Source: Psammoneis japonica (taxonomy: Eukaryota). Taken from it: 64,000 nt of DNA. Each line of letters starts with the position of its first letter. Position 1 is the stretch's first letter. Below the pieces are notes generated by a model. That model saw only the letters and a list, made by a program, of their open reading frames with translations, searched no databases and was not told the DNA's origin. Made by a program: the position numbers and the translations under genes. The stretch lies in contig QPGO01000153.1 of assembly GCA_008632985.1 (NCBI GenBank), positions 62,001 to 126,000 on the forward strand, written 5' to 3'. Shown here piece after piece: positions 11,850-62,700 of this stretch.

Positions 11850-13808
11850 TTGAAGCCTTCACAGGTTCTTTCTTTCAGTTTGAACTTGTGCAATGATAAG
11901 CCCATGTCAGAACAACAGTTTGTGGCCACTTCAGCTTTTCGGGAGCTGTGGCAGCGGTAGATGGAACTGTTCTTTTTAACATGGCAACACAAAACAGCAG
12001 TGGCCAAAGGGGGGGGGGGGATCACAAATGTCTTTGGGAAAGAACAGGCAAAAGTCAAAAGCAGGGTCTCTTCCTTGTCTTCGCTCACAATGTAACTCCA
12101 CTCATTTCATTTGGTGAGACTCTTTGGCAATTCCACAAGATGCTCCTGTTGCCAACATTTTGAACAAGGCAATGTCAGCACCACATCAAGAAGCCCACTG
12201 GCTGAGCCTCAAACCTTTGTTGGTTTCTGCCATTCCAGTTGACAAAAGAGACACCCAAGTGCTGAGGTGTCCCACCCGTCGGCCAATTTTCAGCTGACAA
12301 TGTGGGAGGTGGAGCACAATTTTTGACATTTGAGGGTTGTGCTCAGATGCATCTGGTGCATGTCCAATGACAGAGAGCTGGCAACAAAAGCAGCCTTGGA
12401 ACAGATTTGCCAAGCAACCATTTGGTGCCTTGCCTTCACCCGGCCTTGTGACATTTTGTTGGCACTCCACTGCATTTGCTTGCACCACAGCACATGCACC
12501 TGTCAGCACTGTGCTCTGGCAACACATCAGCTGGCAGTCCTGCAGCAACTGGGGCTGGGGTTGTTGATGTTTTTGATGGCGGAAATGGCCCGCTTGGCTC
12601 AAAAGCTCATCTTCTCAGCACTGCACAAAAAGCATTGAGAGTGTTGGTTTTTGTGCAGAAATGTTCACAGCCCTTTGCATGTCAGAGGCCCTGCTGCACA
12701 AACAAATGTGCTGGGTGGTTTGCCCTGGGAGAGGAGGTGCCACACGAAAAGGCACTGTGAGGAGCCATGACGAAAATGGACAAACAGACTTCATGTGTTT
12801 TTGTTGCTGTGATGATGTACAGAGATGACAAAACAAGAGTGACAAAAAATTGGGCATGGTGCGGGGCTCTGTCACAAGTCATTCTGCTTGTGGGCAAAAA
12901 ACTGCACTTTCTTTGAGTCGCCAGAGCTCAAGTGCCCAGAGCTTTTGAAGTGTGTGCACAAGATGACACACACACTCCACTTCAAGAAAGGGGGGCTCAT
13001 GTGAGTGCTCCCTTCAGCAGCTCAAGCCCAAGAAATGCAAAGCTCATGCCAGGACCCAGAGCAAGTTTCAGTGCTTTTTGAAGGCAAGCCCGTCCCTTCT
13101 CCTGGACCCCCAGCACAATCTGCGCATGCAGAGCACACCCAAAAACAGCTTGTCCCAAGTGATGACAAAGAATTGCTGTCACACAAATTGTGCAGCTGAC
13201 TGGGATTGCCTGCCAAAAAATTTTACACTCCACCACTCTTCTTCAGCCAGTGGTTGGTTGGCTTGCACCCCTTTGAGAAGTGGTCTGCAAAAGGTGCTTC
13301 AAATGAGCCCAATTCTTTCTTCCCTTTAAAAAAGTCAGCTCCTTGACATCATCATTGTTTGGGTGCTGGTCTTGCCAGGCTTTCATCTTTTGTTGCATGT
13401 CACCAATGTGCACCTCGTCGCAATCAATGCATTTGACTGTGCACGACACACATCTTCCTGTCGATTCTCTCCACTGCCAGCAGAGCACACTCGAGAACAG
13501 AAGCCGCACTGCAGTGTGCGTGCGACAAAAGTGGCAGAGGACATGCCAATGTTGTGGTCACAAGGGATGCATTTTGGTCACAAGCCCTTCTACCTTTTCG
13601 TGACGTTGTTTTCACACTGCAATGCATGCACTGCAGCAGTCACATCATGCCGTGTGATGTCTTTTCCGATTTGACCACGTCTGTCTGGAGCAGTGCATCT
13701 CTCACGATGTGACCCCTTTGTCGGTCATTTTTCCCAAGTCTTTGCAACAAGCAACAAACCAAAAAATTGCCACGGAAGTCGGAAGTTTTAGTTTTTTCGT
13801 GCACTCAT
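11850..13808. repeat. TpA- and CpG-depleted degenerate sequence (probable element relic) with a GIY-YIG-like remnant on the - strand
   Basis: Almost no TA. CVSCTVKCIDCDEVHIGD (ORF 13243-13509 -) resembles a VYxxxCxxCxxxYIG motif if C/H are reverted to Y. Confidence 0.5.
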
Positions 13809-14084
13809 TGACAGGATTTGAACAGGATTTGGGTGCGCGCGAAATGTCGCGCGCTGTTTAGTTTACCGCGCACAGTTTTGTGTGCTTTAGTTCTGCGCGT
13901 TCGCGCGCGATGCAGTTTGCTTTCGAGCCACAAGGCTCACAAGAATGACAACAGCAGCCCGATTATACCGACTTACACGTCTTTCGGCTCCTGCAACGGT
14001 CTCTGAGCGGAGACTCATCTGCCATTTAGACAGCAGCAAGGAGTTGTTGTTTGAATTCTTGCCATTTGCCTTCAATTTCTGTCA
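13809..14084 (+). repeat. 5' LTR of Copia copy 1 (276 bp, TGACAG..CTGTCA)
   Basis: Direct repeat of 19614-19890; reverse complement of 54486-54761 and 61251-61526. Confidence 0.95.
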
Positions 14085-14809
14085 GATTGACAGTCTTGCT
14101 CATTGTCAACCCATTGAGCAACCGCCATCGTCGTCGTTGATTTACCGACGACGCCACTTCAATTCTGCGTGGACCTCCGCATGTGCTCTACACACATCGG
14201 CAAGTCTGCGCGCATTCAATGCCAGGCATCGGCAGGAATTTAACGTCACCGTCAAGTCTCCTCACCGCTGGACATCTGGATTGATCACACTGCCTTTGAT
14301 CGCTGAAGACATGCATCAACGGTCACATCCAAGTCTGTCCTTGATCCTCATCCCTTGACACACCCATTCATTGGTTAACGGTCAAGAACCCCACACATTC
14401 AAGGATCTTCGTCGCTGAAGACATGCACACATGTGCACATCTTCATGGCCAAGAACTTGTGCCCACTCTTCGGACTGCGGTTTTGCCACCACTCTGCGAG
14501 CACACCGAGTCCATTGCACCTGATCCACCCCGGACCACTGGTGCTCTGCAGTTCTGCCAGGTCCACGAGGATGACTGTGAGAGCAAGTGGCCGTGATTGC
14601 AGCCCACGTTGGGGTGAGGGTGTTTTTCCCGCGTTTGTTTGTTCGTCCACAGCGCCCAACGCCTGCATCAACTGGCCAGCCTGATCGGGAAATCCAACCG
14701 ACATAAAATGAGAACGGTTCAGGGGTCTTGTCCACCTCTGGTCAGCTTGCCTGCAGGGGTTTGCAACCTGCTGCTCCGCTCACAAGCAACCCAAAGTGCC
14801 GCTGGCTGC

Positions 14810-17800
14810 GGGTTCATCCTTCATTGGCAAGATCAGTTGCGCAAGTGCGAGGCACTCATCCCGGCCAGTGACCACTTCTCTGAAGGACAGAAGCGCATCA
14901 TGCTCGAGAATGCCGCACACCCTGTCGAGGAACTCCGTGCTGTCAAGAACCAAGCTGATCAGCATCGCACGCAGAGTGGCAAGAGCCTCACATGCGATCA
15001 ACACTGTGGCTTGCTCCTCTCCGCGGCGGCTCAATGCGACAGCACGTTTCAACCCAAGACGACACCTCGAGCTCCCCGACGTGCCACATGCGCACACGAT
15101 GTCCACTCCGACGAACCGTCCGACGATGTGTTCTGCAACATTGACAGCGACATTGACGTCCTTCAGGCTGATGCTGCCCACACCCGTGGTCCCAGCCTCA
15201 CCGGTGACCAATGGAAACGTCTCCCTCCTGCCCACCAACGGATTTGGGATTCGTTGCCCCATTCCTCCAAGGCGATCATCCTTGGGCATTCTCGTCCGCC
15301 TCCCCGCAACCCGCGAGCCAGCAACTGCCATGAGTTCATTGCGGCCAACCTTCACGACCAACGCCTTGGGAGTGACGGTGATGTCAACTTGTCCAACACG
15401 ACTCCTGCTGACTCTGGTGACTCCGCTCCAAATGTGGATGCCACTTCGGACAATCCCATCCTGGCGCACCTCACCAAGTGCAAGCCACTGCCACCCGGTG
15501 ATCTGCAACGTCTGTTGTCTCCTAATCAAGCCCCCAACGCTAGTCGACCGGGGCCATCCACCGCTCCCTCTACCCCGCCAGCTTCTGCCGATGACACAGA
15601 ACTTGGCAGCTGCACTTGCCGTCGCGTTGATGACCACAATGTCATTTGCTCTGCCTCTGCTCATCGCTCCACATGCACTGGTGCTCCAGTCGATCGTGGG
15701 GCCAACGGCGGCATTGCTGGCGACGACGTTCACGTCATTGCACGCACCTCTCACCAAGTCGACGTTCAGGGCATTGACGACCATCAATTGGTGGACATCC
15801 CCATTGTCACCGCTGGTGCCGTCATTGAGACCCAGCGTGGTCCCGTCATCGCCATCCTCCATCAGCACGCACACACGGGAAAGGGCAAGACCATCCATTC
15901 CTGTGGCCAGCTCGAATGGCACAAACAGGATGTCAACGATCGCTCTGTCAAGGTGCCCAACGGCTTGCAACGCATTGCCACTCCTGATGGCTGTGTCATC
16001 CCCATTGACATCAAGGGCGGCCTGCCTTGTGTTGCCATGTGACCTTACACTGACGCCGAATGGGACACCCTGCCCCATGTCATCCTCACCGGTGATGACA
16101 CATGGGATCCTTCCGTCCTCGATCACTCTGTCACTGACGATGACCAGTGGTGCAACGCGATCTCTGACCTGCAGGACGATCCCACTGCCAACCCATTTGA
16201 CGAATGCGGCAACTGCCGTCATCGTGTCATTGTCAACGAGACCATCATGTCCGCTTCCTTGTCTGCCGATCACGCGTCCGCCCTTGATGATCACCTCATT
16301 CCGAACGACGACATGTTCTGCAAGTGTCATCTACACGCGATTGACCCCAAGGACGATGACGTTCCGCCCCCGGAGCGCACTGTGCAGCCCAAGGACCCCC
16401 CCTTCGAGTCTCTTCGGCCTCACTTTGGCTTCCTCCCTGCCGATGCGGTCCGTCGTACTTTTGACTGCACCACGCAGCACGTCCGCATGCCCGCCGGTGC
16501 ACACCTTAGGAAGGCCCACAAATCACCCAACCCCACCCTTGGTGTGCACCGCCGCAACGAGCCTGTCGCCACTGACACCGTTCATGCCGACACCCCGGCC
16601 GTCGACTCTGGTTGCACCAGCGCCCAACTGTTTGTTGGCACCGAGTCTACCATCACTGACATCTGCGGCACCAAGACGGACAAAGAATTTGTCAACACAC
16701 TTGAGGATCAGATCCGGGAGCGTGGTGCCCCATCCAAACTCATTGGTGACCGTGCTCAAGTTGAGATCAGCAACAAGGTGCTCGGGATCCTGCGAGCCCT
16801 CTTCATCTCCAGCTGGCAAAGTGAGCCTCACCAGCAACACCAAAACTTTGCCGAGCGTTGACACCAGACCGTGAAGCACATGGCGAACACTGTCATGGAT
16901 CGTTTTGGTTCGCCCGCCCACACATGGCTGCTGGCGCTCATGCATGTGTGCTTCATGCTCAACCACACAGCGTCCTTGCATCTCCACTGGCGCACGCCCC
17001 TCGAGACTCTCGCTGGCTCCACCCCGGACATCAGCCCATTGCTTCGCTTTCACTGGTGGGAACCCGTGTGCTTCCACCTCGATGACTCCGATTGGCCGCC
17101 CGAATCCCGTGAGTTGCGTGGACGCTTTGTTGGCATTGCTGAGCACGTCGGCCACCAGATGACCTTCAAGATTCTTTCTGACGAGACTCAGAAGATCCTC
17201 TGCCGGTCCAACGTACGCTCCGCTGCCACCGATCCTGCCGTTCGAAACCTGCGTCTTGATCCTCCTGATGGGGAGCCACCTGAACCCATCATCAAATCTC
17301 GCCATGACGACAACCCCGTCGATTCTCCTGATGGGGAGATCAGGACACCCAAGATGCCAGTTTTCGATCCGCAAGACATCATCGGACGCACCTTCCTCAT
17401 GCAGCCACAAGAGGACGGACAACGCCACAGAGCTCGCATCGTCAAGGCCGTCAAAGACCACGAATGGAAAGTGAATGGCAATTTCGAGCTCACCAAGTTC
17501 GTCTGCTCTGTCAACAACGACGAATACGAGGAAGTCCTTGCCTGCAATGACATCATGAATCACATTGAGCAAGAAGACGAAGACACCACTGTTTGGAAAT
17601 TTCGATGCATCATGTCACATGAAGGACCTCTGAAGCCTCATGACCCAACCTGGAAAGGCTCAAGCTACAACATCATGCTTGAATGGGAAAGTGGGGAGAT
17701 CACGTCCGAGCCTCTTGCCATCATCGCCAAGGACGACCCCGTCACCTGCGCCATCTGTGCACGAGAGAACGGACTTCTCGACACTGATGGCTGGAAGCGG

Positions 17801-19613
17801 TTCCGCACCATCACGAGGCGCCAAAAGAAGCTATTTCGCATGGCCAACCAAGCCAAGCTTCGCTCCTTCCGCACTGCACCTCGCTGCAAGTGCGGATGCG
17901 AAGTTCCCCGGAACCACAAACACGCCATGTCACTAGACGAACGCAACGGCAACCGCAAATGGGGAGACGCAACTAATCTCGAGATGGACCAACTCGAGGA
18001 ATGCGAAGTCTTCCATGACTGCGGGCCCTTCGAGTCTTCCACTCCTCCTGCGGGACACAAGAAGATCCGAGTGCACCTGGTGCACGACGTGAAACACGAC
18101 GGTCGCCACAAGGCACGACTCGTAGCCGATGGGCACCTCACGGACGCACCTGTCGACAGTGTCTGCTCCGGAGCAGTCTCCCTCCGTGGCCTTCGGCTGA
18201 TGATTTTCCTGGCCGAACTCAACGAGTTGGAGACATGGGCCACCGACATTGGCAATGCCCACCTTGAAGCCACCACCAAGGAGAAGCTCTACATTGCAGC
18301 CGGACCCGAATTTGGCAAACTCGAAGGACACATCCTTGTCATCCACAAGGCCCTGTGTGGACTGCGCAGCTCTGGTCTCCGCTGGCACGAGCGCTTCGCC
18401 GACTGCCTGCGAGCTGAAGGATTCTTCCCCTGCCGCGCCGAACCCGACATTTGGATGCGCAGGAACAGCGACCACTGTGAATGCATTGCCGTTTGTGTGG
18501 ATGACCTCGCCATTGCTGTGAAGGACCCTCAATCTTTCGTCGACACTCTCACGGAAAAGCACAAGTTCAAGCTCAAGGGTGCGGGACCCATTGAGTTCCA
18601 TCTGGGTTGCGACTTTTCCCGGGATCCCAACGGCACCTTGTGCCTGTCTCCGCGCAAGTACATCGAGCGCATGGTCGACAGCTGCACCCGACTGTTTGGG
18701 GAGAAACCTGCCACCAATGCCCTGTCACCTCTGGAGAAGGGTGACCACCCCGAACTGGACACTTCCGAACTGCTGGGGCCCGATGGCATTCACAAGTTCC
18801 AGTCTCTTGTTGGTTCACTCCAATGGGCAGTGTCCCTTGGTCGAATTGACATTGCCACGGCCGTCATGTCACTCTCTAGCTTCCAAGCTGCGCCCCGTCA
18901 AGGCCACTTGGATCGTGCCAAACGCGTCTGTGGGTGCCTCTCCAAGATGCGACACGGCGCTCTCCGCGTTCGCACGGAAGAGCCCGACTGTTCGGATCTC
19001 CCTGCTCCGGCCTGTGAATGGATGCATTCCGTGTGCGGCGAAGCAGAAGAGATGATCCCGAAGGACGCTCCACCGCCCCTTGGCAAGTTCGTCACTGCCA
19101 CCCACTGCGTCGATGCAAACTTGCACCATTGCATGCTCACCGGACGCTCTGTCATGGGAATGCTCCACTTCCTCAACAAATTCCCGGCTGATTGGTTCTC
19201 TAAGAAGCAAGCCACTGTGGAGACTGCGACCTGCGGGTCTGAATTTGTTGCTGCAAGGACTTGTGTCGAGCAGATTGTTGACCTGCGCATCACCCTGCGC
19301 TGCCTTGGCATCCCGATCCGCAATGTCAGTCACATGTTCGGTGACAACAAGTCGGTTGTAGACAGTGCCACCATCCCGCACTCCAAGTTACACAAGCGAC
19401 ACACCGCACTGTCATTCCACCGTGTGTGTGAGGCAATTGCCTCTGGTTGCCTTGAGCTCCACTTCATCGAAGGCTCCCGCAACCCTGCTGACATTCTCAG
19501 CAAGCATTGGGGTCACTCCCAAATCTGGGACCTTTTCCGCCCCCCAATGTTCTGGAACTTCATTCCATCCGAAGTCGAATCTGTTTCTGTGGCTCCTCAA
19601 GCAAACTGGGGAG
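14810..19613 (+). pseudogene. Copia gag-pol remnant
   Basis: ORFs 14639-16042, 16247-16861 and 16871-19915 are in one frame, split by TGA stops where copy 2 has CGA (Arg); only ~4 Tyr in the 1014-aa segment. Confidence 0.9.
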
Positions 19614-19890
19614 TGACAGGATTTGAACAGGATTTGGGTGCGGCGCGAAATGTCGCGTGCTGTTTAGTTTGCCGCACACAGTTTTGTGTGCTTCAGTTCC
19701 GCGCGTTCGCGCGCGATGTGGTTTGCTTTCGAGCCACAAGGCTCACAAGAACAATGACAGCAGCCCGATTGTGCCAACTTGCACGTCTTTCGGCTCCTGT
19801 GATGGTCTCTGAGCGGAGACTCATCTGCCATTTAGACAGCAGCAAGGAGTTGTTGTTTGAACTCTTGCCACTTGCCTTCAATTTCTGTCG
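19614..19890 (+). repeat. 3' LTR of Copia copy 1 (277 bp, ends CTGTCG)
   Basis: Preceded by the PPT-like tract; differs from the 5' LTR mostly at TA and CG sites. Confidence 0.95.
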
Positions 19891-20024
19891 CTTGTCCTCG
19901 TTCCTGTCAACTTGACACAAGCGCATCAAATCACAACAGAGGATCTAAAGTTTGTCCACTTTGCAACACCTGAGTTGTGCTCTTTGTCTGATCTGCGTGT
20001 CTGATTGAATCAGTTAAACGGAGG

Positions 20025-21484
20025 ATGGCAACGGATGACTTCGTTTGGCCTTCGGGCTTCTTGTTCAAGAATGCACTGCTGGCTTCGACTTCCACATCGA
20101 TGTGCAATGGGCCTTCAGCCACTTCCATGTCGAATTGTGGCCAGGCGAGTCTTCTACGAAACGTGCAGATCATGTCCAATGGGAGGAGTCTCATGTCCAA
20201 TTCATTGCATCGAGTGGCCGCTGGCAGTGCTCTCGGCAGCGCCGCCATTCTTGGAGCGGCACCGAGCGGAATGAGCGGACCTGGCATTCTTTCACCCGTC
20301 TCCCAGCCTGCTTTGTCTACGTCAGCGCCAAGCCGAATGAGCAGACCTGACACCTCACCCATCTCTGAGCCTTCTATGTCTTCGTCGACACTGAAGAAAA
20401 TCACCCCATCGGCGCAGCTCGTATGCGATGAGACTGAATTGGCTAGAGCGCTGCAGATTGGTGATGACCAAGCCCGACTACCGCTTAAAAAGAGGGCCAA
20501 AATTGGTTGCATGAATTACATTGCGGCAGACAATAAGAAGGAAGACGAAACACTTGATGAAGATGTCAAGCTTATGACGATGCAGTACCAATCACGAGTT
20601 GAAAAGGACCGGTTAGGAGTAGGAGCGTCATCAGCGGTTAAGAAGTCACCGAAGCAGGACCGGTCACGAGTAGCGTCTACTGCAGTTGAAAACCGACCAA
20701 AGGAGGACCGATCACAAGAAGCGCCATCGACTGTAGTCAAAAAGTCGTCGGCTGTTCGGAAAAATGTGGACAGGAAGAAAGAAAGGTCTCCCAACCCTTC
20801 TACTGAGAAGCATTGGAATAAAATGTTTCTGAAACTTGTGAGTCCGCAATGTATTGCGTGTCGCATTTCATCCTCCTTTTAAACTCTCTTACTCATTGCT
20901 GCCTTATGTTCTTTGTCTCCACACAGCTCGCTTACAAAACTGTTCATGGCAATTGCAATGTCCCCAATAACTACAAGGACGACCCGCGCTTAGCAAAATG
21001 GGTCGGGTATCAAAGAAAGAGAAACAGGCTTCTCCCGGCCGATCGCAAGGAAAAGCTAGAAGAACTTGGCTTTGCTTTTTGCCTCAAAAAGCATGATTCG
21101 TGGGAAGTCATGTACAAACAGCTGGTCGAGTACAAACGCAAGCATGGCACATGCATGGTGCCACAACTCTACCGCGAGAACAAGAAACTAGGAAAATGGG
21201 TTGCAATCCAAAGATTCAACAAGAAATCACTCACGAAGGAGCGTTTTGAACTACTTAATGAGTTGGAATTTGTGTGGAATGCAAACAAATTCATATGGAA
21301 GACTAACTACGAAGCTTTGGTCGCGTTCCAAGCAAAGCATGGCCACTGCCGTGTTCCGTCTGACGACGAAGAATACAAGCAGCTATCGCATTGGGTGCGT
21401 AGACAACAACGAAACAAAGCTCTTCTCACTACACGTTGTGTGAAACTGCTTGAGGAAATTGGTCTTAAAATAATGCAGCCGTAG
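20025..21484 (+). CDS. Helicase-associated (HA) repeat protein, three HA domains
   Basis: Intron 20838-20926; WNKMFLKL|LAYKTVHGNCNVP..LAKWVGYQR, WEVMYKQLVEYKRKHGTCMVP..LGKWVAIQR, WKTNYEALVAFQAKHGHCRVP..LSHWVRRQ. Confidence 0.9.
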
Positions 21485-22310
21485 GTTCTTAGGTAACAGC
21501 TGACGAGATGCAAGGGACAAAGAAGAAAACAATATAAGGCTGAGAATGCACGGAGTGGGGGGCGTTTTCTTGAAACACGTTGCATATCATACTATCTGTA
21601 ATTCGTACAAACAACCATTATTCGAACTATTTCTCTGGAGCAATGACTTCGCAGTGTCAATCCCCATTCTTGATTCTCATGAAGAAGAGATGGCGGCTGT
21701 GGTCCTGGACGGCTTGGTCAAGTTTCACTTTTAGTTTGGACAGGTTTCGAGATGGAATTGATTCGTAAGCGATGGTGCTAAAAGTCTACTACGGCGCTTT
21801 TCAACTAAAGTAGCTCTCTAGTTATAGAGATTTCAGCCATGTCGAAGTTGAGGAGAAGACTTCTTGGGGGTGCCGAACGGCATCGAAGCCCAAACATGAA
21901 CAGCTCAGCGTGGGAGAAGACATCGTCATATCATAAGCCCTTTTCATTTCGGATGACCTCTCTGGCTAATCTCACCCTCGGGCCCTATCTTGCCCTACTA
22001 AAGTACTTACTGTAAGGGGCTTACTACAGGAGAGAGTAGCTTCACTGAAGCTAAGTATTCTACTACATACAGTGGCTTCACTATTACCAGTAGCTCTAAA
22101 ACACTAATTATGGACATACGCACCGTCAGGTGTCTACATTTATTTGTGGAGAATTGAGCCCTTCAGTCATGATTTTTTACGATCTACTTATACGAGGAAA
22201 GATTCGTGGCAAAGGCAAACGAAAGAGAGGAAGAGTTTTCCATTACGTGTATTAGACCTACTCACTCGATGTTTGATCTGCTGTCATGATTGTGTCATTT
22301 TTCTTGGAAG

Positions 22311-27567: not shown

Positions 27568-27594
27568 TCTCTCTCTCTCTCTCTCTCTCTCTCT
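27568..27594. repeat. (CT)n microsatellite
   Basis: About 13 TC units. Confidence 0.9.
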
Positions 27595-29460: not shown

Positions 29461-29532
29461 AAGCAGGAGTGGCTGCTCTTTGATGAAACCCAAAAGCTGG
29501 AGTGGCTGCTCTTTGATGAAACCCAGAAGCTG
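29461..29532. repeat. 33-bp tandem duplication
   Basis: gagtggctgctctttgatgaaaccca(a/g)aagctg twice. Confidence 0.85.
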
Positions 29533-33356: not shown

Positions 33357-33369
33357 CACGCGTGTCCCA

Positions 33370-40780: not shown

Positions 40781-40831
40781 TTTAGCAAATTTTAGCCCAT
40801 TTTAGCAATTTTAGGCTAATTTAGGCTAATT
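40781..40831. repeat. Imperfect ~10-bp tandem array at the edge of the TA-depleted block
   Basis: tttagcaaat tttagcccat tttagcaatt ttaggctaat ttaggctaat. Confidence 0.7.
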
Positions 40832-47246: not shown

Positions 47247-47475
47247 AGTTGAATGGTTGAGATGCATTGTTGGTAGTTGGAAAAGTAGACGAAGTTAAAG
47301 TTATGAACTTATATATTACCGCAAAGTCTTTGTCCCTTTGCAATCTATCGCATGTTTTTCTTCTTGTGGCTGCAAATCTTGAAGTTTCCGCACTGTCTTT
47401 TTCAGTCTTATTGACACCACACCGTGTTATAATTCCCACGCCTCATCTTGGATGGACTGCCCCAATCGAGAGAAA

Positions 47476-49567: not shown

Positions 49568-51412
49568 ATGACGAATTTGAGCACACTTAGCACCATTTTA
49601 CTGGCGTTGGGAAGTGTGTTTTTGTTGACGGGAATCATCACCACGGCGGTTTCCGTGGCCAATCAAAACAACAGCAATAATGATGAGGATAAGAAGAAGG
49701 ATGTGTCTAAACCATCAGGTGGAACAAATAATGGCGAGACACGCTTGGAGCTCATTCCCGCCATGGCGGTGTCTCCGTTGGACCAAGACCGTCACGATTC
49801 GATTCGTGCCAATGTGGTGGCACTGGACATTTCGACGCCAGAAGCGCTCGATACCACGGGCACACCGGCCAATCTTGCCTTGCGTTGGTTGACGGATTAC
49901 GACAAGGCCAAGCTCGCGGTCGATCACTTGGCACTCAGTCAGCGTTTTGCTCTGGCGACTCTCTTCTTTTCGACCCACACCAAGGTGAATAATGGCGATA
50001 CTAGCATTGTCATTGTGCAAAAGGCAGACGAAACGTGGAGCAATATGGAACATTGGATGACGGAAAAGGGCATTTGTGTGTGGCACGGTGTGTCGTGTCC
50101 ACCCATTATTGTGGGTGGACGAGAGGTAACGACCTACAACGACAATTCGGGCGTGCAAGAGTTGAATTTGAACAATAACAATGTCCGCGGCAACATTCCC
50201 ATGGAGGTTCGGGCTATGGAGAATTTGAAATTGTTGGATTTGGGGGGAAACAGTTTGCATGGTAGCATTCCGACGCATGTGGGACATTTGCGGGCCTTGA
50301 GTGAGTTGAGACAAAGGGCGAGTTGGACTGGATACACTTTTGAGACTGTTTTGCTCACTGTTTTTATTCTTTTTCCATCGTTCAGCCAACTTATATTTTA
50401 TGCAAAACAAACTCACGGGCTTTGTACCCTCGGAATTGGGTATCTTGACCGATTTGGAAAATTTTCACGTTGGAAACAACCTCTTGGAAGGCCAGGTTCC
50501 GACGGAGATTTCCTTGCTCAAGAAGCTGGAGTCGTTTGGATTGGATCAGAATTATCTTTCGGGGGCACTTCCGGATGTGTCCAAGTTTGATAAATTGAGT
50601 AAGTATTCAAAGCGAGTGCTGCTATCGGAAAGCTTCATTTTACATGATACTTATGCATGCGCTTTTGTCACACTTTTACAGCGGCTCTCTATTTGGATAA
50701 TAATGCCTTTAGCGGTTCCATTCCGTTTGAATGGTCCAGTCTTGTGTCTCTCAAGGATTTGCGCTTGAACCGAAACTACTTGACGGGAGAGTTGCCATCG
50801 ACTCTGTTCAAGATGCCCCGTTTGGAACTCATGTATTTGGGAAACAATATCTTTACGGGAACTGTCCCAGATTTGTTTTCTGGAACACCCCGCTTGCTGG
50901 AGGTCCAGCTGTACAAGAATGAGTTTACGGGCTCCGTGCCGGCTTCGTTGGGATCGTTGAGCCTGTTGCGTCTCTTGTATTTGGACACAAACGACTTTTC
51001 GGGAGAGCTCCCGGATACCCTGGGTAACTTGGATGACTTGACGGCGCTTTATGCCTATGACAATTACTTGGAGGGCCAGTTGCCCACGACGCTGGCCAAA
51101 ATGAAGAATCTCAAGGACCTGCGGGTCGACCAAAACTCGTTGACTGGAACGATTCATACAGAAATGAGTCAGTTGATCAATTTGGAGTATCTTCATTTAC
51201 ATAGTAACGAGCTGACGGGTTCCGTGCCTGGCGAACTCCAGGAACTGGATCGCCTCAAGTCGTTCCGTTTTTATTGGAACCAATTTACCGGCACGGTGCC
51301 GGATCAAGTCTGTGCTCTCAAGTCAAAGCATCAACTCGCGTTTATCGCTGCTGATTGTGATGAAACGGAAGGTAATATTGAATGCGAGTGCTGCAATGAG
51401 TGCTTTCCGTAA
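49568..51412 (+). CDS. LRR receptor-like protein 5 (short N-terminal signal/anchor)
   Basis: Exons 49568-50300, 50386-50598, 50682-51412; starts MTNLSTLSTILLALGSVFLLTGIITTAVSVA. Confidence 0.9.
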
Positions 51413-53731: not shown

Positions 53732-56700
53732 ATGACGAATTTGAGCACACTTGGCACCATTTTACTGGCATTGGGAAGTGTGTTTTTGTTGGCGGGAATC
53801 ATCACCACGGCGGTTTCCGTGGCCAATCAAAACAACAGCAACAATGATGAGGACAAGAAGAAGGATGTGTCTAAACCATCAGGTGGAACAAATGATGGCG
53901 AGACACGCTTGGAGCTCATTCCCGCCATGGCGGTGTCTCCGTTGGACCAAGACCGTCACGATTCGATTCGTGCCAATGTGGTGGCACTGGACATTTTGAC
54001 GCCAGAAGTGCTCGACACCACGGGCACACCGGCCAATCTTGCCTTGCGTTGGTTGACGGATTGCGACAAGGCCAAGCTCGCGGTCGATCACTTGGCACTC
54101 AGTCAGCGTTTTGCTCTGGCGACTCTCTTCTTTTCGACCCACACCAAGGTGAACAATGGCGATGCTGGCATTGTCATTGTGCAAAAGGCAGACGAAACGT
54201 GGAGCAACATGGAACATTGGATGACGGAAAAGGGCATTTGTGTGTGGCATGGTGTGTCGTGTCCACCCATTGTTGTGGGTGGTCGAGAGGTGATGACCTG
54301 CAACGACAATTCGGGCATGCAAGAGTTGAATTTGAACAACAACAATGTCCGCGGCAACATTCCCATGGAGGTTCGGGCCATGGAGAATTTGAAATTGTTG
54401 GATTTGGGAGGAAACAGTTTGCATGGCAGCATTCCGACGCATGTGGGACATTTGCGGGCCTTGAGTGAGTTGAGACAAAGGGCGATGACAGAAATTGAAG
54501 GCAAATGGCAAGAATTCAAACAATGACTCCTTGCTGCTGTCTAAATGGCAGATGAGTCTCCGCTCAGAGACCGTTGCAGGAGCCGAAAGGCGTGCAAGTC
54601 GGTGTGATCGGGCTACTGTCATCATTCTTGTGAGCCTTGTGGCTCGAAAGCAAACTGCATCACGCGTGAACGCGCGGAGCTAAAGCACACAAAACTGTGC
54701 GCGGCAAACTAAACAGCGCGCGACACTTCGCGCGCACCCAAATCCTGTTCTAATCCTGTCACTCCCCAGTTTGCTTGAGGAGTCACAGAAACAGATCCGA
54801 CTTCGGATGGAATGAAGTTCCAGAACATGAGGGGGCAGAGAAGGTCCCAGATTTGGGAGCAACCCCAATGCTTGCTGAGAATGTCAGCAGGGTTGCGGGA
54901 GCCTTCGATGAAGTGGAACTCAAGGCAACCAGAGGCAATTGCCTCACGCACATGGTGGAACGACAGTGCGGTGTGTCGTTTGTGTAACTTGGAGTGCGGG
55001 ATGGTGGCACTGTCTACAACCGACTTGTTGTCACCGAACATGTAGCTGACATTGCAGATCGGGATGCCAAGGTGGCGCAGGGTGATGCGCAGGTCAACAA
55101 TCTGCTCGACACAAGTCCTTGCGGCAACAAATTCAGACCCGCAGGTCGCAGTCTCCATGGTGGCTTGCTTCTTAGAGAACCAATCAGCCGGGAATTTGTT
55201 GAGGAAGTGGAGCATTCCCATGACAGAGCGTCCGGTGAGCATGCAATGGCACAAGTTTGCATCGACGCAGTGGGTGGCAGTGACGAACTTGCCAAGGGGC
55301 GGTGGAACGTCCTTCGGGATCATCTCTTCTGCCTCGCCGCACACGGAATGCATCCATTAACAGGCCGGAGCAGGGAGATCCGAATGGTCGGGCTCTTCCG
55401 TACGAACGCGGAGAGCACCGTGTCGCATCTTGGAGAGGCACCCACAGACGCGTTTGGCATGATCCAAGTGGCCTTGACGGGGCGCAGCTCGGAAGCTAGA
55501 GAGTGACATGACGGCCGTGGCAATGTCAATTCGACCAAGGGACACTGCCCATTGGAGTGAACCAACAAGAGACTGGAACTTGTGAATGCCATCGGGCTCC
55601 AGCAGCTTGGAAGTGTCCAGTTCGGGGTGGTCACCCTTCTCCAGAGGTGGCAGGGCATTGGTGGCAGGTTTCTCCCCAAACAGTCGGGTGCAACTGTCGA
55701 CCATGCGCTTGATGCACTTGCGCGGAGACAGGCACAAGGTGTCGTCAGGATCCCGGGAAAAGTCGCAACCCAGATGGAACTCAATGGGTCCCGCACCCTT
55801 GAGCTTGAACTTGTGCTTTTCCGTGAGAGCATCGACAAAAGATTGAGGGTCCTTCATGGCAATGGCGAGGTCATCCACATAAACGGCAATGCATTCACAG
55901 TGGTCGCCATTCCTGCGCATCCAAATGTCGGGTTCGGCGCGGCAGGGGAAGAAGCCTTCAGCTCGCAGGCAGTCGGCGAAGCGCTCGTGCCAGCAGAGAC
56001 CGGAGCTGCGCAGTCCATGCAGGGCCTTGTGGATGACAAGGATGTGTCCTTCAAGTTTGCCAAATTCGGGTCCGGCTGCAATGTAGAGCTTCTCTTTGGT
56101 GGTGGCTTCAAGGCAGGCATTGCCAATGTTGGTGGCCCATGTCTCCAACTCGTTGAGTTCGGCCAGGAAAATCATCAGCCGAAGGCCACGGAGGGAGACT
56201 GCTCCGGAGTGGACACCATCGACAGGTACGTCCGTGAGGTGCCCATCGGCTACAAGTCGTGCCTTGTGGCGACCGTCGTGTTTCACGTCGCACACTGGGT
56301 GCACTCGGATCTTCTTGTGTCCTGCAGGAGGAGTGGAAGACTCGAAGGGCCCGCAGTCATGGAAGACTTCATATTCGTCGAGTTGGTCCATCTCGAGATT
56401 AGTTGCGTCTCCCCATTTGCGGTTGCCGTTGCGCTCGTCTAGTGACATGGTGTGTTTGCAGTTCCGGGGAACTTCGCATCCACACTTGCAGCGAGGTGCA
56501 GTGCGGAAGGAGCGAAGCTTGGCTTGGTTGGCCATGCAAAATGGCTTCTTTTGGCGCCTCGCGATGGCGCGGAACCGCTTCCAGCCATCCGTGTCGAGAA
56601 GTCCGTTCTCTCGTGCATAGATGGCGCAGGTGACGGGGTCGTCCTTGGCGATGATGGCAAGAGGCTCGGACGTGATCTCCCCAATTTCCCATTCAAGCAT

Positions 56701-59700
56701 GATGTTGTAGCTCGAGCCTTTCCAGGTTGGGTCGTGAGGCTTCAGAGGTCCTTCGTGTGACACGATGCGTCGAAATTTCCAAACAGCAGTGTCTTCGTCT
56801 TCTTGCTCAATGTGATTCACGATGTCGTTGCAGGCAAGGACTTCCTCGCATTCGTCGTTGTTGACGGAGCAGACGAACTTAGTGAGCTCGGGATTGCTGT
56901 TCACTTTCCATTCGTGGTTTTCGACGGCCTTGACAGTGCGAGCTCTGTGGCGTTGTCCGTCCTCTTGTGGCTGCATGAGGAAGGTGCGTCCGATGATGTC
57001 TTGCGGATCGAAAACTGGCATCTTGGGTGTCCTGATCTCCCCATCAGGAGAATCGACGGGGTTGTCGTCATGGCGAGATTTGATGATGGGTTCAGGTGGC
57101 TCCCCATCAGGAGGATCAAGACGCAGGTTTCGAACGGCAGGATCGGTGGCAGCGGAGCGTACGTTGGACCGGCAGAGGATCTTCTGAGTCTCGTCAGAGA
57201 GAATCTTGAAGGTCATCTGGTGGCCGACGTGCTCAGCAATGCCAACGAAGCGTCCACGCAACTCACGGGATTTGGACGGCCAATCGGAGTCATCAAGGTG
57301 GAAGTGCACGGGTTCCCACCAGTGAAAGCGAAGCAATGGGCTGATGTCCGGGGTGGAGCCAGTGAGAGTCTCGAGGGGCGTGCGCCAGTGGAGACGTGGG
57401 GATGCTGCATGGTTGAGCATGAAGCACACATGCATGAGCGCCAGCAGCCATGTGTGGGCGGGTGAACCAAAACGATCCATGACAGTGTTCGCCATGCACT
57501 TCACGGTCTGGTGTCGACGCTCGGCAAAGTTTTGGTGTTGCTGGTGAGGCTCACTTTGCCAGCTGGAGATGAAGAGGGCTCGTAGGATCCCGAGCACTTT
57601 GTTGCTGATCTCAACTTGAGCACGGTCGCCAATGAGTTTGGGTGGGGCACCACGCTCACGGATTTGATCCTCGAGTGTGTTGACAAACTCTTTGTCCGTC
57701 TTGGTGCCGCAGACGTCAGTGACGGTAGACTCGGTGCCAACAAACAGTTGGGCACTGGTGCAACCAGAGTCGATGGCCGGGGTGTTGGCACAAACGGTGT
57801 CAGTGGCGACAGGCTCGTTGCGGCGGTGCACATTAAGGGCGGGGTTGGGTGATTTGCAGGCCTTCCTAAGGTGTGTGCCGGCGGGCATGCGGGCGCACTG
57901 CGTGGTGCAGTCAAAAGTACGACGGACCGCATCGGTGGGCAGGAAGCCAAAGCAAGGCCGAAGAGACTCGAAGGGGGGGTCCTTGGGCTGTGCAGTGCGC
58001 TCCGGGGGCGGAACGTTGTCGTCCTTGGGGTCAATCGCGTGCAGATGACACTCGTAGAACACGTCGTCATTCGGAATGAGGTGATCATCGAGGGCGGACG
58101 CGTGATCGGCAGACAAGGAAGTGGACATGATGGTCTCGTTGACAATGACACGATGACGGCAGTTGCCGCATTCGTCAAATGGGTTGGCAGTGGGATCGTC
58201 CTGCAGGTCAGAGATCGCATCGCACCACTGGTCGTCGTCAGTGACAGAGTGATCGAGGACGGAAGGATCCCATGTGTCATCACCGGTGAGGATGACATGG
58301 GGCAGGGTGTCCCATTCGGCGTCAGTGTGAGGTCGCATGGCAACACAAGGCAGGCCGGCCTTGATGTCAATGGGGATGACACAGCCATCAGGAGTGGCAA
58401 TGCGTTGCAAGCCATTGGGCACCTTGACAGAGCAATTGTTGACATCCTGTTTGTGCCATTCGAGCTGGCCACAGGAATGGATGGTCTTGCCCTTGCCCGT
58501 GCATGCGCACTGATGGAGGATGGCGATGACGGGACCACGCTGGGTCTCAATGACGGCACCAGCGGTGACAATGGGGATGTCCACCAATTGATGGTCGTCA
58601 ATGCCCTGAATGTCGACTTGGCGAGAGGTGCGTGCAATGACGCGAACGTCGTCACCAGCAATGCCGCCGTTGGCCCCACGATCGACTGGAGCACCAGTGC
58701 GTGTGGAGCGATGAGCAGAGGCAGAGCAAATGACATTGTGGTTGTTGGCACGACGGTGAGTGCGGCCGTTGAGTTCTGTGTCATCGGTGAGAGCTGGCGG
58801 AGCAGTGGGAGCGGCGGATGGCCCCGGTCGACTGGCGTTGGGGGCTTGGTTAGGAGACAACAGGCGTTGCAGATCACCGGGTGGCAGTGGCTTGCGCTTG
58901 GTGAGGTGCGCCAGGATGGGATCATCCGAAGTGGCGTCCACATTTGGAGCGGGTTCACCAGAGTCAGCAGGAGTCATGTTGGACAAGTTGACATCACCGT
59001 CACTCCCAAGGCGTTGGTCGTGAAGGTTGGCCGTAATGGACTCATGGCAGTTGCTGGCTCGCGGGTTGCTGGGAGGCGGATGAGAATGCTCAAGGATGAT
59101 CGCCTTGGAGGAATGGGGCAACGAATCCCAAATCCGTTGGTGGTCGGGAGGGAGACGTTTCCATTGGTCACCGGCGAGGCTGGGACCACGGGTGCAGGCA
59201 GCATTGGCCTGAAGGACGTCATGGCACGTCGGGGAGCTCGAGGTGTCGTCTTGGGTTGAAACGTGCTGTCGCATTGAGCTGCCGCGGAGAGGAGCAAGCC
59301 ACAGCATTGATTGCATGTGAGGCTCTTGCCACTCTGCGTGCGATGCTGATCAGCTTGGTTCTTGACAGCACGGAGTTCCTCGACAGGGTGTGCGGCATTC
59401 TCGAGCATGACGCGCTTCTGTCCTTCAGAGAAGTGGTCACTGGCCGGGATGAGTGCCTCGTGCTTGCGCAACTGATCTTGCCAATGAAGGATGAACCCGT
59501 GGGTCGGACCCTTCCAAGTGCCATCACCAAGACGTGCGGTGGTGAGGTGCGTTGGCAAGGTGGAGGACTCGACAGATGCGCGGGTGGAAGCGAGCGCACA
59601 CTCAGACAGGGCGCGGCAGACGGTCTGGGCATCAGAAGACCCCACATTTTCGCGGATGAGAGCCTTGCCCTTGTCGGTGAGAAGGATGCGTTTGAAGATG

Positions 59701-62700
59701 GCGAACATGCACTTTTGCTGTTCAGCAAAGAGCAGTTTGTCTTTGGGGCTGGTCGGTTTGTACGACGAGTCTAGAGTGCACTCGACGTCTTGGGCACGGG
59801 CTTGTGCCACAAGTGAGGTGTGCCAAGTGTGCCACTGCTTGTCGGATTTGAGAGCCGTGAAAGCGGTGGGATCACGCTTGATGCCTCGCTTGAAGTCCCG
59901 TGCCGGGTCGCGTGCCTTGGTCGGGTTGGTGACATGCGGAGGTGCGAGGGGTGAGCTGCCGATGGACACAGAAGACATGTGGTCGGGGCTGAGGCGGCAG
60001 GCAAGGAACTCGTCATGCGTGAACAACGAGGAGTCATTGGCAACGTCAAGACCTTTGTGTGCTTTGACAATGTACAGACCAACTGGAGCTGCTAACATGT
60101 TCTTATAACCACGGGGCAAAGGGATCACATTGGTGCCGTTGTCGCACTCAAGCGAGTCGATTTGGGACGGTATGAACGTGAATAGTTCTTGATGCGAGTC
60201 CGCGCCGTCTTGGGCCAAAGCCAAACGAAGAGGGCTCCCAGCACCTTGGGCAAGCACGGTTCCAACAACGTGCTCGAAACCATCGGTTTGTTGCTGACGA
60301 GTGAGAACCATGGCAGACAAAATTGGTGTCAGGACAAGCAATTCTTGTTGGGAAGCGAAGGTGGACTTGAAGCTTGGGTGAGAATGGACTTGACTTGAAA
60401 CGGACTTGACTTGAAATCTTGAACTGCCTTAAAATCAGAAGTCGCCGGGTTTTGCTGTCCCGTTCGTTGTCAAGTGCTAAACTTCCCATCCGGTCCGCAG
60501 AGTTGTGCCGGCACGTCCGAACCCGCAGCTGGTGGCGCTTTGGGTTGCTTACGAGCGGAGCAGCGGGTTGCAAACCCCTGCAGGCAAGCTGACCAGAGGT
60601 GGACAAGACCCCTGAACCGTTCTCACTTTGTGTCGGTTGGATTTCCCGATCAGGCTGGCCAGTTGATGCAGGCGTCAGGCGCTGTGGACGAATGAACAAA
60701 CGCGGGAAAGCACCCTCGCCCCAACGTAGACTGCAATCACGGCTGCTTGCTCTCACAGTCGTCCTCGTGGACCTGGCAGAACTGTGGAGCACCAGCAGTC
60801 CGGGGCGGATCAGATGCAATGGACTCGGTGTGCTTGTAGAGTGGCAGCAAAACCGCAGTCCGAAGAGTGGGTGCAGGTTCTTGGCCGTGAAGACATGTGT
60901 GTGTGCACATGTCCTCAGCGACAAAGATCCTTGAACATGCAGGGTTCTTGACCGTTGACCGATGAACAGGCATGTCAAGGGATGAGGATCAAGGATGGAC
61001 TTGGACATGACCGTTGAATGCATGTCTTCAGCGATCAAAGGCAGTGTGATCAATCCAGACATCCAGCGGCAAGGAGACTTGATGGTGACGTTAACTTCCT
61101 GCCGATGCCCTGGCATTGAATGCGCGCAGACTTGCCGATGCATGCAGAACATGCACGGAGGTCCACGCAGAATTGAGGTGGCGTTGTTGGCAAATCAACG
61201 ACGACGATGGCGGTTGCTCAATGGGTTGACAATGAGCAAGACTGTTGATCTGACAGAAATTGAAGGCAAATGGCAAGAATTCAAACAACAACTCCTTGCT
61301 GCTGTCTAAATGGCAGATGAGTCTCCGCTCAGAGACCGTTGCAGGAGCCGAAAGACGTGTGAGTCGGCACAATCGGGCTGCTGTCATCATTCTTGTGAGC
61401 CTTGTGGCTCGAAAGCAAACTGCATCACGCGCGAACGCGCGGAACTAAAGCACACAAAACTGTGCGCGGCAAACTAAACAGCGCGCGATGCTTCGCGTGC
61501 ACCTAAATCCTGTTCAAATCCTGTCAGGCGAGTTGGACTGGGTGCACTTTTGAGACTGTTTTGCTCACTGTTTTTGTTCTTTTTCCATTTTTCAGCCAAC
61601 TTGCACTTTGTGCAAAACAAACTCACGGGCTTTGCACCCTCGGAATTGGGCATCTTGACCGATCTGGAAAATTTTCACGTTAGAAACAACCTCTTGGAAG
61701 GCCAGGTTCCGACGGAGATTTCCTTGCTCAAGAAGCTGGAGTCGTTTGGATTGGATCAGAATCATCTTTCGGGGGCACTTCCGGATGTGTCCAAGTTTGA
61801 TAAATTGAGTAAGTGTTCAAAGCGAGTGCTGCTGTGGGCGCGCTGAATTAATCTCACGTATTGGGCGCAACCTTCGCGGTGAAGGGGGGGGGAGGGGGGG
61901 AATCGTAAAATCACGTGTTATTCTGTAAAACACGTGCTTCGTCGTGTAAAACACACATTTTGGCTCATTATCCTATATCTTACGTAGGATCCTACGTAGC
62001 AGGCTTTTTCGAGCATTCGTCGGTCTGTCGTCGGTCTGTCGTCGGTCTGTCGTCGGTCATTTTTGATGGCAAACTCAAACCAAAAGGAACCCGGAAGTGA
62101 ACATTCACTGTCAGTGCGCGCGATTTGAATGCGCAAACACCAAAAACTGCTCGACTCGACTGTCGAAAGCACCATGACGACCCAAGCCGCTGCTTGTTAC
62201 TAGGGCGTTTTACAAAACAGGGGTGTTTTACACATTTTGACAATCTGGGGTGAAAGTGGGGTCAGGGGCACCGCCCAATACGTGAGATTAATTCAGTGCG
62301 CCCTATCGGAAAGCTTCATTTTACATGATACTTATGCATGCGCTTTTGTCACACTTTTACAGCGGCTCTCTATTTGGATAATAATGCCTTTAGCGGTTCC
62401 ATTCCGTTTGAATGGTCCAGTCTTGTGTCTCTCAAGGATTTGCGCTTGAACCGAAACTACTTGACGGGAGAGTTGCCATCGACTCTGTTCAAGATGCCCC
62501 GTTTGGAACTCATGTATTTGGGAAACAATATCTTTACGGGAACTGTCCCAGATTTGTTTTCTGGAACACCCCGCTTGCTGGAGGTCCAGCTGTACAAGAA
62601 TGAGTTTACGGGCTCCGTGCCGGCTTCGTTGGGATCGTTGAGTCTGTTGCGTCTCTTGTATTTGGACACAAACGACTTTTCGGGAGAGCTCCCGGATACC

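Follow-up and report, generated by a model that had tools for sequence, protein, structure and literature searches.

TpA-targeted hypermutation of integrated DNA has been described in the chlorarachniophyte Bigelowiella natans. In mutation-accumulation lines, two integrated viral regions gained 231 mutations, of which 230 were A-to-G or T-to-C changes, each at a TpA (Mettrop et al., bioRxiv 10.64898/2026.01.13.699255). In this preprint, the targets measured are a single insert of a giant virus and a single virophage insert, with TpA about 1.8-fold depleted, and the TpA-poor coding sequences are enriched in reverse-transcriptase and DDE Pfam families (bioRxiv 10.64898/2026.01.13.699255). It was the sole paper on TpA-targeted hypermutation in the literature searched, which comprised sources outside subscription journals; none of the papers returned dealt with diatoms or LTR elements. 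A term search of the preprint returned no mention of diatom, retrotransposon, LTR, or flank.

RIP in fungi resembles the process at the locus described here in that it acts on DNA, produces only transitions, hits both strands, targets TEs, spreads into adjacent DNA, and destroys coding capacity. However, RIP converts CpA to TpA and raises TpA and AT, whereas here TpA is destroyed, GC goes up, and stop codons are removed. In animals, APOBEC3 and ADAR leave retroelement copies with clustered transitions of the deaminase type in specific contexts, as seen here. Unlike the process at this locus, they work before integration, on cDNA or RNA and on one strand, and are not known to affect host flanks.

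The window analyzed here, meaning the whole 64-kb stretch of DNA, holds two copies of a Copia LTR retrotransposon, and its host is probably a diatom, whereas B. natans is a chlorarachniophyte. An ORF with an HA domain had one named hit, at 41% identity, to a gene model labelled jgi/Psemu1; Psemu1 stands for Pseudo-nitzschia multiseries, and the papers listed under that label deal with diatoms or with marine eukaryote references. A BTB ORF matched nothing but unnamed sequences, at up to 70% identity. None of the hits for pol, the HA-domain ORF, or the BTB ORF came close to 100% identity, which speaks against a genome with deposited proteins, B. natans among them. The two systems have in common A:T-to-G:C changes almost only at TpA, TpG or CpA products according to strand, restriction to foreign or integrated DNA, and TpA depletion with CpA and TpG enrichment. 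At this locus, the direction at TpA is seen in 16/18 host TpA sites, in 16/22 CA/TG doubles in pol, and in the Tyr codons, of which 7/60 are kept. Both strands are hit (9 TG and 7 CA in the flanks; 37 plus 37 doubles between the copies), and the changes are confined, with TpA depleted and CpA and TpG in excess. The systems differ in their targets, which are viral inserts in B. natans and LTR retrotransposons plus other repeats here, and in extent, with TpA about 1.8-fold depleted there and near saturation here (O/E of about 0.1). The changes here spread 300 to 600 bp into host DNA and prefer a 3' pyrimidine. Mutation in B. natans was seen directly in the accumulation lines, whereas here it is read from sequence alone.

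Copia copy 1 spans positions 13809-19890 and is framed by CTCAT on the left and CTTGT on the right. Its parts and surroundings are as follows.

11980..13803, no strand assigned: older block left of copy 1, TpA-poor and CpG-poor by composition
13804..13808, plus strand: left target-site duplication (TSD) of copy 1, now CTCAT, directly before the 5' LTR; boundary from the four-LTR alignment
13809..14084, plus strand: 5' LTR of copy 1, 276 bp, TGACAGG...CTGTCA, from the four-LTR alignment
14085..19615, plus strand: internal region of copy 1, with open frames 14796-16874 and 16871-19612
19616..19890, plus strand: 3' LTR of copy 1, ending in CTGTCG, the most mutated of the four LTRs
19891..19895, plus strand: right TSD of copy 1, which now reads CTTGT and abuts the 3' LTR
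19896..20400, no strand assigned: TpA-poor host flank right of copy 1, overlapping the start of ORF 20025-20882

The letters of both flanks had been reported in an initial annotation, and re-reading together with the LTR boundaries confirmed them. CTCAT and CTTGT match at 3/5 positions. For two unrelated 5-mers, the analytic chance of agreeing at three positions and differing by an adjacent CA/TG pair is only 4.9e-4, so the flanks of copy 1 are a decayed duplication. Both TSD copies fall within TA-poor DNA. The interval 11851-13950 has a TA O/E of 0.09 and a CG O/E of 0.37, and the right flank has 5 TpA in about 510 bp and 24 over the next 600 bp. In the internal region, TpA O/E is about 0.1 and CpG O/E is about 0.85. 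We conclude that the mismatched TSD is very probably a by-product of region-targeted chromosomal TpA hypermutation.

The element has the direct LTRs (276 bp) and TG...CA termini of Ty1/Copia, with the ends intact in 3/4 LTRs. All four LTRs start with TGACAGG, and three end in CTGTCA. The 3' LTR of copy 1 ends in CTGTCG (...TTTCTGTCG at 19890), its last A now being G. The 5-bp TSD expected of Ty1/Copia is found as GGCGA on both sides of copy 2 and as CTCAT/CTTGT at copy 1. A Copia-type reverse transcriptase (Pfam RVT_2, PF07727, E = 4.5e-24, 85.8 bits against a cutoff of 31.6) occupies residues 393 to 604 of the second frame of copy 1 (16871-19612). RVT_2 is the only Pfam match in the 914-aa frame, and the 692-aa frame has none. 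No integrase model matched in the approximately 390 residues upstream of RVT_2, where heavy Tyr-codon loss may mask a match. The pol sequence has 1,328 homologues at E <= 1e-10, the best of them anywhere being 63 to 66% identical, and a search of the 64-kb window gave no Rfam matches. The family is very abundant, with a summed contig depth of 54,000 to 227,000 over the element versus about 59 in the flanks. The read-derived contigs have 369 variant places over the stretch.

Copy 2 exceeds copy 1 by about 1,026 bp, located at about 59500-60525. It is inserted in unit 3 of a 4,166-bp tandem array, in which units 1 and 2 supply the polarity of each change.

50317..50321, plus strand: tandem unit 2, empty site paralogous to the copy 2 target, with a single GGCGA, from the unit comparison
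53882..54480, no strand assigned: host DNA left of copy 2, at the start of tandem unit 3; 11/11 ancestral TpA converted (6 TG, 5 CA), CpG changed at 5/39
54486..61526, minus strand: Copia copy 2, 7,041 bp, with perfect GGCGA at 54481-54485 and 61527-61531
61532..61830, no strand assigned: host DNA right of copy 2; 5/7 ancestral TpA converted, plus three-state sites

As the initial annotation had stated, the GGCGA of copy 2 is a perfect duplication without TA. The equivalent of this target site in unit 1 is GGAGA, at 46151-46155. With units 1 and 2 as the outgroup, 16/18 ancestral TpA were converted in host DNA within 300 to 600 bp of copy 2, 9 to TG and 7 to CA. Farther out, at 61827-63140 on the right, conversion was 0/33 (near versus far, Fisher p = 2e-11); element proximity and repeat status are not fully separable in this comparison, because the copy 2 flanks lie in a tandem repeat and unit 1 also has a few TA-to-TG changes. 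The three-state sites right of copy 2 read TA in unit 2, TG in unit 1, and CA in unit 3. CpG was changed at 6/50 near sites and 1/45 far sites. There are also A:T-to-G:C changes outside TpA: in the host DNA right of copy 2, at 61542, 61576, and 61664, and in the 3' LTR of copy 1, as two T-to-C changes plus the terminal A-to-G. The polarised flanks demonstrate the direction of the change, its action at the DNA level and on both strands, and its limited spread into host DNA. The earlier proposal of a two-strand TA-to-CA/TG process acting on chromosomal DNA after integration is thereby supported, mainly by evidence beyond the TSD from which it was drawn.

Inside the element, copies 1 and 2 differ at 353/6013 aligned sites, with 337 transitions and 16 transversions. 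Among the transitions, 148 make up 74 adjacent CA-versus-TG doubles, 37 per orientation. The pol region has 22 of these doubles: 16 trace to TA and 4 to CG, with 2 assigned to neither. Half of the 22 lie at codon positions 1 and 2, and since the third base is C or T in 11/11, none of these 11 would imply an ancestral TAA or TAG. At 10 of these 11 codons, Tyr is found in 25 to 79 of 80 homologues and Arg in at most 1. In the 30 pol columns with Tyr in at least 70% of homologues, the two copies together (60 cases) have Tyr 7, Cys 32, His 13, Phe 6, and Trp 2 times. Most other conserved pol residues are retained at 84 to 100% (for example, Arg 68/76, Asn 30/30, Trp 28/28), and retention is lower for Ile (37/50) and Thr (34/50). 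The per-column Tyr-codon patterns of the two copies are TG/TG 11, CA/TG 8, TA/TG 4, CA/CA 2, CA/TA 1, and TA/TA 1, which by our own arithmetic fits independent hits in each copy. On the sense strand, TGY exceeds CAY at Tyr codons (32 versus 13, binomial p = 0.007). The two LTRs of one copy are separated by 4 CA/TG doubles in copy 1 and 5 in copy 2. Across the four LTRs, three dinucleotide sites show TA, TG, and CA, and none shows CG.

The window contains nine blocks poor in TA, whose lengths sum to 39.2 kb with a slight overlap in two pairs; they have a TpA O/E of 0.06 to 0.17 and a CA/TG O/E of 1.3 to 1.8. Most unique DNA of the window has a TpA O/E of about 0.4 to 0.8. The blocks coincide with both Copia copies and with other degenerate repeats, and TpA loss in them is near saturation. 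The CpG O/E of the older blocks is 0.06 to 0.4. Surviving TpA has a 3' purine on both strands: relative survival is 0.36 for AA, 0.40 for AG, and 0.21 for GG, versus 0.01 for TT and 0.012 for CT. TpA followed by a pyrimidine is the preferred target.

We suggest that, after integration, each Copia copy and about 300 to 600 bp of host DNA on either side lost nearly all TpA to TpG or CpA. The changes are A:T-to-G:C transitions on one strand or the other, and the first hit would remove the TpA, so that the site would never proceed to CG. The duplication at copy 1 was most likely CTTAT; a change on one strand would have turned its left copy into CTCAT, and a change on the opposite strand its right copy into CTTGT. 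The GGCGA of copy 2, which has no TpA, is unaltered. A slower decay of CpG to TpG or CpA proceeds in parallel in the same regions. The foremost candidate for the enzyme is a TadA/ADAT2-like adenine deaminase that may act on DNA, by analogy with the proposal for B. natans. Alternatively, a modified thymine at TpA, mispairing with G, would produce this pattern equally well.

The initial annotation had placed each flank of copy 1 one step from CTTAT. This is correct, but it overlooked that CTCGT is equally one step away, by CpG-to-CpA on the left and CpG-to-TpG on the right, and the TSD alone cannot fix the ancestor. It is very unlikely, however, that the TSD was CTCGT and that 5-methylcytosine deamination removed a methylated CpG in each copy. 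CpG decay, as in silenced TEs, is real here, in the same blocks and the near flank (the 6/50 above), in the 4/22 pol doubles, and in the CpG depletion of the older blocks. However, it is about 7 times rarer per site than the TpA change in young Copia copies and cannot explain the Tyr codon loss. We measured conversion rates in the copy 2 flanks and applied them to the TSD of copy 1. CTCGT needs two independent hits at about 0.12 per site, versus about 0.89 for TpA in comparable DNA (Fisher p = 6e-9). The squared ratio is about 55 to 1 against it, or about 40 to 1 with CpG roughly estimated to be slightly commoner than TpA in unique DNA, so that local rates favour CTTAT by about 40-55 to 1. The CpG within the GGCGA of copy 2 is intact on both sides. 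CTTAT is thus drawn from rates and not observed, since no empty allele of copy 1 was found: among contigs from four runs of one sample in one study, at a likeness of at least 85%, none of the 15 joints listed (of 37) links 13808 to 19896. The read-derived flank contigs, 12500-13830 and 19850-21500, run into the LTRs. For the flanking ORF 19992-20879, none of 125 pattern matches in metagenomes was confirmed as a relative by tblastn, and since the best pol homologue anywhere reaches no more than 63 to 66% identity, the species seems to be missing from the metagenome collections searched.

Just as improbable is that the changes are systematic base-calling errors of a long-read assembly, made at modified bases such as the T or A of TpA in silenced DNA. 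Modified motifs cause transition-type consensus errors in nanopore assemblies, and the sequencing chemistry is not on record. However, contigs of run X1, with an even depth of about 59, reproduce both copy 1 flanks with 1 other letter in 1,331 bp and 1 in 1,651 bp; these contigs come from the single sample that carries the stretch, possibly the assembly source, and are not independent. Moreover, the sites are CA or TG and never CG, which fits target removal by the first hit, and a given Tyr codon stands in different, stable states from copy to copy.

A-to-I editing of the element RNA by an ADAR-type enzyme, or reverse-transcriptase error, before integration is less credible still. ADAR prefers A after U, and TGY exceeds CAY on the sense strand at Tyr codons. 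However, the 3' pyrimidine preference explains this excess, because a TAY codon always offers a pyrimidine on the sense strand. In the flanks, hits fall on the two strands in about equal numbers, and CA/TG doubles distinguish the two LTRs of a single copy. The same changes occur in host DNA outside the element, which never passed through RNA or cDNA. The argument of the initial annotation against both processes is therefore borne out, and they are refuted for the flanks; inside the element, they could have a minor share.

There is almost no chance that the copy 1 flanks were never duplicated and are unrelated host DNA, through recombination of two Copia insertions or mis-set ends: the abundance of the family makes ectopic recombination possible, but the 4.9e-4 chance of such 5-mer likeness, the agreement of all four LTRs on the ends, and a TSD mismatch of the same form as the 74 doubles within the element stand against it. 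Fungal-direction RIP, which raises TpA through C-to-T changes at CpA or another CpN, was also considered and was rejected for its opposite polarity, as TpA goes down here and CA/TG goes up; among the polarised flank sites, ancestral CA is unchanged at 60/60 sites and ancestral TG at 73/74, with one TG-to-TA.

Region-targeted TpA hypermutation at this locus would, if the host is a diatom, add a second, distant lineage to a phenomenon hitherto known from a single 2026 preprint. New here are the LTR retrotransposon targets, the near-saturation, the footprint that ends a few hundred bases out, the TpA-pyrimidine preference, and the independent hits per copy. We tentatively raise the possibility that a reverse-RIP-like genome defence by a DNA adenine deaminase exists in diatoms also, beyond one chlorarachniophyte. 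Chromatin or small RNA might direct it to each transposon insertion, where it would erase TpA, T-A-pyrimidine preferred, to near saturation and spill 0.3 to 0.6 kb into host genes. If so, the process would be ancient, or would have arisen repeatedly, in distant algal lineages, host genes adjoining transposons would suffer collateral Tyr-to-Cys/His changes, and dates from LTR divergence would be inflated.

Host exons beside insertions are also altered. The LTR divergence is 6 to 8% and is mostly hypermutation, so the insertions cannot be dated by it. Tools that require perfect TSDs miss elements whose duplication held TA, and repeats that have lost TAA and TAG come to contain long false ORFs on both strands.

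Among six ORFs in the 25 to 44 kb range, which includes other TA-poor blocks, the only matches were a sub-threshold one to Plavaka transposase (E = 0.0016, 18.2 bits against a cutoff of 26.3) and one to HNH_2 in ORF 41046-42017, within a TA-normal gap between TA-poor blocks.

The 64-kb window contains two copies of one Ty1/Copia element, one of them inserted in a tandem array of host sequence:

13809-19890, + strand: Copia copy 1, boundaries by LTR alignment
13809-14084 and 19616-19890, + strand: 276-bp LTRs of copy 1, by LTR comparison
54486-61526, - strand: Copia copy 2, by sequence comparison within the window
45555-54485 and 61532-63150: tandem array of 4166-bp units with LRR-protein exons

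A Pfam search placed RVT_2 (PF07727, E = 4.5e-24) in the second of the two long frames of copy 1; this frame had 1328 homologues at E <= 1e-10, the best being 63-66% identical. The element ends are set by the agreement of a four-LTR alignment, in which all four LTRs start with TGACAGG and three end in CTGTCA; the exception, the 3' LTR of copy 1, has CTGTCG. Copy 2 has about 1026 bp (59500-60525) absent from copy 1, copy 1 has 67 bp (15087-15153) absent from copy 2, and there are three single-base indels besides. The family seems to be very high-copy in this genome, as the summed contig depth (12,283 contigs) was 54,000-227,000 over 13704-20024 versus about 59 in unique flanks.

Copy 2 sits in the third unit of the array and has a perfect target-site duplication (TSD), GGCGA on both sides. 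Because of this location, its empty site is legible in unit 2, where GGCGA occurs once (50317-50321). Identity between units 1 and 2 is 95-100% over the repeat segments compared, and the homology of unit 3 stops near 63150. To polarize changes in the host DNA flanking copy 2, we compared it with units 1 and 2 as outgroup.

Ancestral dinucleotides changed in host DNA beside copy 2
Left, 53882-54485 (604 bp): TpA converted 11/11 (6 TG, 5 CA); CpG changed 5/39
Right, near, 61527-61826: TpA converted 5/7 (3 TG, 2 CA); CpG changed 1/11
Right, far, 61827-63140: TpA converted 0/33; CpG changed 1/45

TpA conversion differed sharply between near and far DNA (Fisher p = 2e-11), and near copy 2 it exceeded CpG change (p = 6e-9). 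CpG change near versus far gave p = 0.11. The direction was from TA. Ancestral CA near copy 2 was unchanged at 60 of 60 sites and TG at 73 of 74, the exception being a TG->TA change in the right flank. The conversion spread into host DNA to a limited extent, stopping sharply at about 61830 on the right. Host DNA never transits RNA or cDNA, and the process therefore acts on chromosomal DNA after integration. The initial annotation had argued this from the TSD of copy 1; the flanks settle the point more firmly than a 5-bp TSD does. The right flank also holds at least two further three-state sites (TA in unit 2, TG in unit 1, CA in unit 3), two of which, 61635 and 61651, are TpA events. Three A:T->G:C changes there lie outside TpA (61542, 61576, and 61664). 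Host coding sequence beside copy 2 was altered, for example from TAC to TGC. At about 46220-46260, TA is retained in unit 2 but has become TG at a few sites in unit 1, where no element adjoins.

Over 6013 aligned sites, the two copies show 353 differences, 337 of them transitions and 16 transversions. Among the transitions, 148 form 74 adjacent CA-versus-TG doubles, 37 in each orientation, and such a double must derive from TA or CG. Single differences comprise 103 of CG versus TG/CA and 32 of TA versus CA/TG. About 350 CpG but only about 20 TpA are unchanged between the copies, and both copies have a TpA observed/expected ratio (O/E) of about 0.05-0.2 and a CpG O/E of about 0.7-0.95. Between the LTRs of copy 1 (92% identity) there are 4 CA/TG doubles, with 5 single differences each of the TA and CpG types; for copy 2 (94%), the counts are 5 doubles and 2 TA-type and 1 CpG-type singles. 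At three dinucleotide sites, TA, TG, and CA all occur among the four LTRs, and CG occurs at none of these. LTR divergence is thus mostly hypermutation, so the insertions cannot be dated by it. The proposed two-strand TA->CA/TG hypermutation was borne out by both products in the flanks (6 + 3 TG, 5 + 2 CA) and by the 37 + 37 doubles. Both strands were hit, and conversion came near saturation.

The chemistry may be adenine deamination by a TadA/ADAT-like enzyme, with a targeting signal as a further putative part of the mechanism. TadA/ADAT enzymes act on A34 following U33 in tRNA, and the T-A context fits them for this reason. Modification of thymine at TpA, leading to mispairing with G, is possible as well, as it is expected to give the same symmetric pattern.

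The flanks of copy 1, CTCAT (13804-13808) and CTTGT (19891-19895), were confirmed. The probability of such a resemblance between unrelated 5-mers is 4.9e-4; therefore, the flanks are a decayed duplication. The initial annotation derived both from CTTAT, which is one transition from each and is favored by the rates. It overlooked that CTCGT is equally close. Judged by its sequence, the TSD alone is ambiguous between the two, and a CTCGT ancestor could have decayed classically on either strand, from CpG to CpA on the left and to TpG on the right. At the flank rates (conversion per site of about 0.89 at TpA and 0.12 at CpG), however, TA is favored over CG as the source of a CA/TG pair by about 55 to 1, or by about 40 to 1 after a rough estimate that CpG is slightly commoner than TpA in unique DNA. 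Both TSD copies lie inside TA-poor DNA. The left flank is part of an older block (11851-13950; TA O/E 0.09, CG O/E 0.37), and TpA is scarce in the right flank as well, with 5 in 19891-20400 versus 24 in the next 600 bp. The ancestral TSD was very likely CTTAT, as judged from rates rather than read from an empty site, and the earlier interpretation is supported. No empty allele was seen in the runs carrying this stretch, all from one sample, which show the filled allele.

Coding constraint in pol (16871-19612) also bears on the ancestor of the doubles. Eleven of its 22 doubles fall at codon positions 1-2, where one copy encodes His and the other Cys. The third base is C or T in all 11, so that a TA ancestor would in no case have been a stop codon; a CG ancestor would also have permitted CGA or CGG, and neither occurs. 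At 10 of these 11, Tyr is found in 25-79 of the 80 homologues and Arg in no more than one. The remaining double, at 16877, has Arg in 23 homologues and Tyr in none. A double was called resolved if a minimum of 10 homologues carried the favored residue and it outnumbered the alternative by three to one or more; by this rule, 16 of the 22 pointed to TA, 4 to CG (16877, 18466, 18628, and 19216), and 2 were undecided. Thirty pol columns have Tyr in at least 70% of homologues. The 60 cases in the two copies are 7 Tyr, 32 Cys, 13 His, 6 Phe, and 2 Trp. Most other conserved residues were retained at 84-100% (Arg 68/76, Asn 30/30, Trp 28/28), with lower retention of Ile (37/50) and Thr (34/50). Across the copy pair, the Tyr columns read TG/TG (11), CA/TG (8), TA/TG (4), CA/CA (2), CA/TA (1), and TA/TA (1). 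By our arithmetic on these counts, this matches the expectation for independent hits in each copy, and therefore the source element still had its Tyr codons.

The TA-poor blocks hold 197 TpA in 38.6 kb, versus 1030 in the 25.4 kb elsewhere. Among the survivors, TpA with a 3' purine on each strand is overrepresented: relative survival was 0.36 for AA, 0.40 for AG, and 0.21 for GG, versus 0.01 for TT, 0.012 for CT, 0.06 for GT, and 0.08 for AT. The preferred target is therefore T-A-pyrimidine, provided that the original TpA contexts of the repeats resembled those of unique DNA. This preference explains why TTTAG is intact in all four LTRs. It also accounts for the excess of TGY over CAY on the sense strand at conserved Tyr codons of pol (32 versus 13, p = 0.007), since in every TAY codon the A is followed by a pyrimidine on that strand. 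The excess fits this preference, but a transcription-linked strand bias may contribute as well.

Nine TA-poor blocks, two pairs of them slightly overlapping, total 39.2 kb of the window. The older blocks have nearly lost CpG too, as at 26-31 kb (TA O/E 0.02-0.05, CG O/E 0.06-0.2, mean CA/TG O/E up to 1.98), which indicates that TpA was lost first and CpG later. The 15.5-kb block at 25251-40800 (TpA O/E 0.06, CpG O/E 0.38) is probably old transposon DNA that has been converted completely; the one protein match there, to a Plavaka transposase in an ORF at 34402-36294 (-), falls below threshold. The antisense strand of copy 1 has long open frames of 516, 349, and 204 aa (14780-16330, 16523-17572, and 17665-18279, all -). 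Such false ORFs open in converted DNA because TAA, TAG, and their complements are lost, and they are a trap for gene prediction. The ORF at 20025-20882 (285 aa, ATG at 20025) begins some 130 bp away from copy 1, with its first ~400 bp in the TA-poor zone, and may be a host gene with collateral damage; it had no Pfam match and no relative in a metagenome scan. Between two TA-poor blocks, the ORF at 41046-42017 (+) has an HNH_2 endonuclease domain (E = 2.6e-7). In its unique parts, the window has coding sequence for BTB proteins, many LRR proteins, and one protein with three HA domains. The only named relative is a jgi/Psemu1 gene model (41% identity), presumably from Pseudo-nitzschia multiseries; the label turns up in diatom papers among those listed. 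The protein searches gave no hit close to 100% identity, which speaks against B. natans or another genome whose proteins are deposited, and the host is likely a diatom.

The phenomenon is real and striking, yet a previous account exists from another alga. According to a preprint (Mettrop et al., bioRxiv 10.64898/2026.01.13.699255), the only relevant report in our literature search, 231 of 302 nuclear single-nucleotide mutations in Bigelowiella natans mutation-accumulation lines fell in one giant-virus and one virophage insert, at about 6e-7 per site per generation. All but one of the 231 were A->G or T->C, every one of these at TpA; reverse-transcriptase and DDE domains were enriched in TpA-poor coding sequences, and an ADAT2-like deaminase was proposed. 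A term search of its text returned no mention of diatom, retrotransposon, LTR, or flank. The process in the P. japonica window is of the same kind, in a host that probably differs. Its targets are LTR retrotransposons and other repeats rather than viral inserts, and, unlike in B. natans, it is near saturation and visibly spreads into host DNA.
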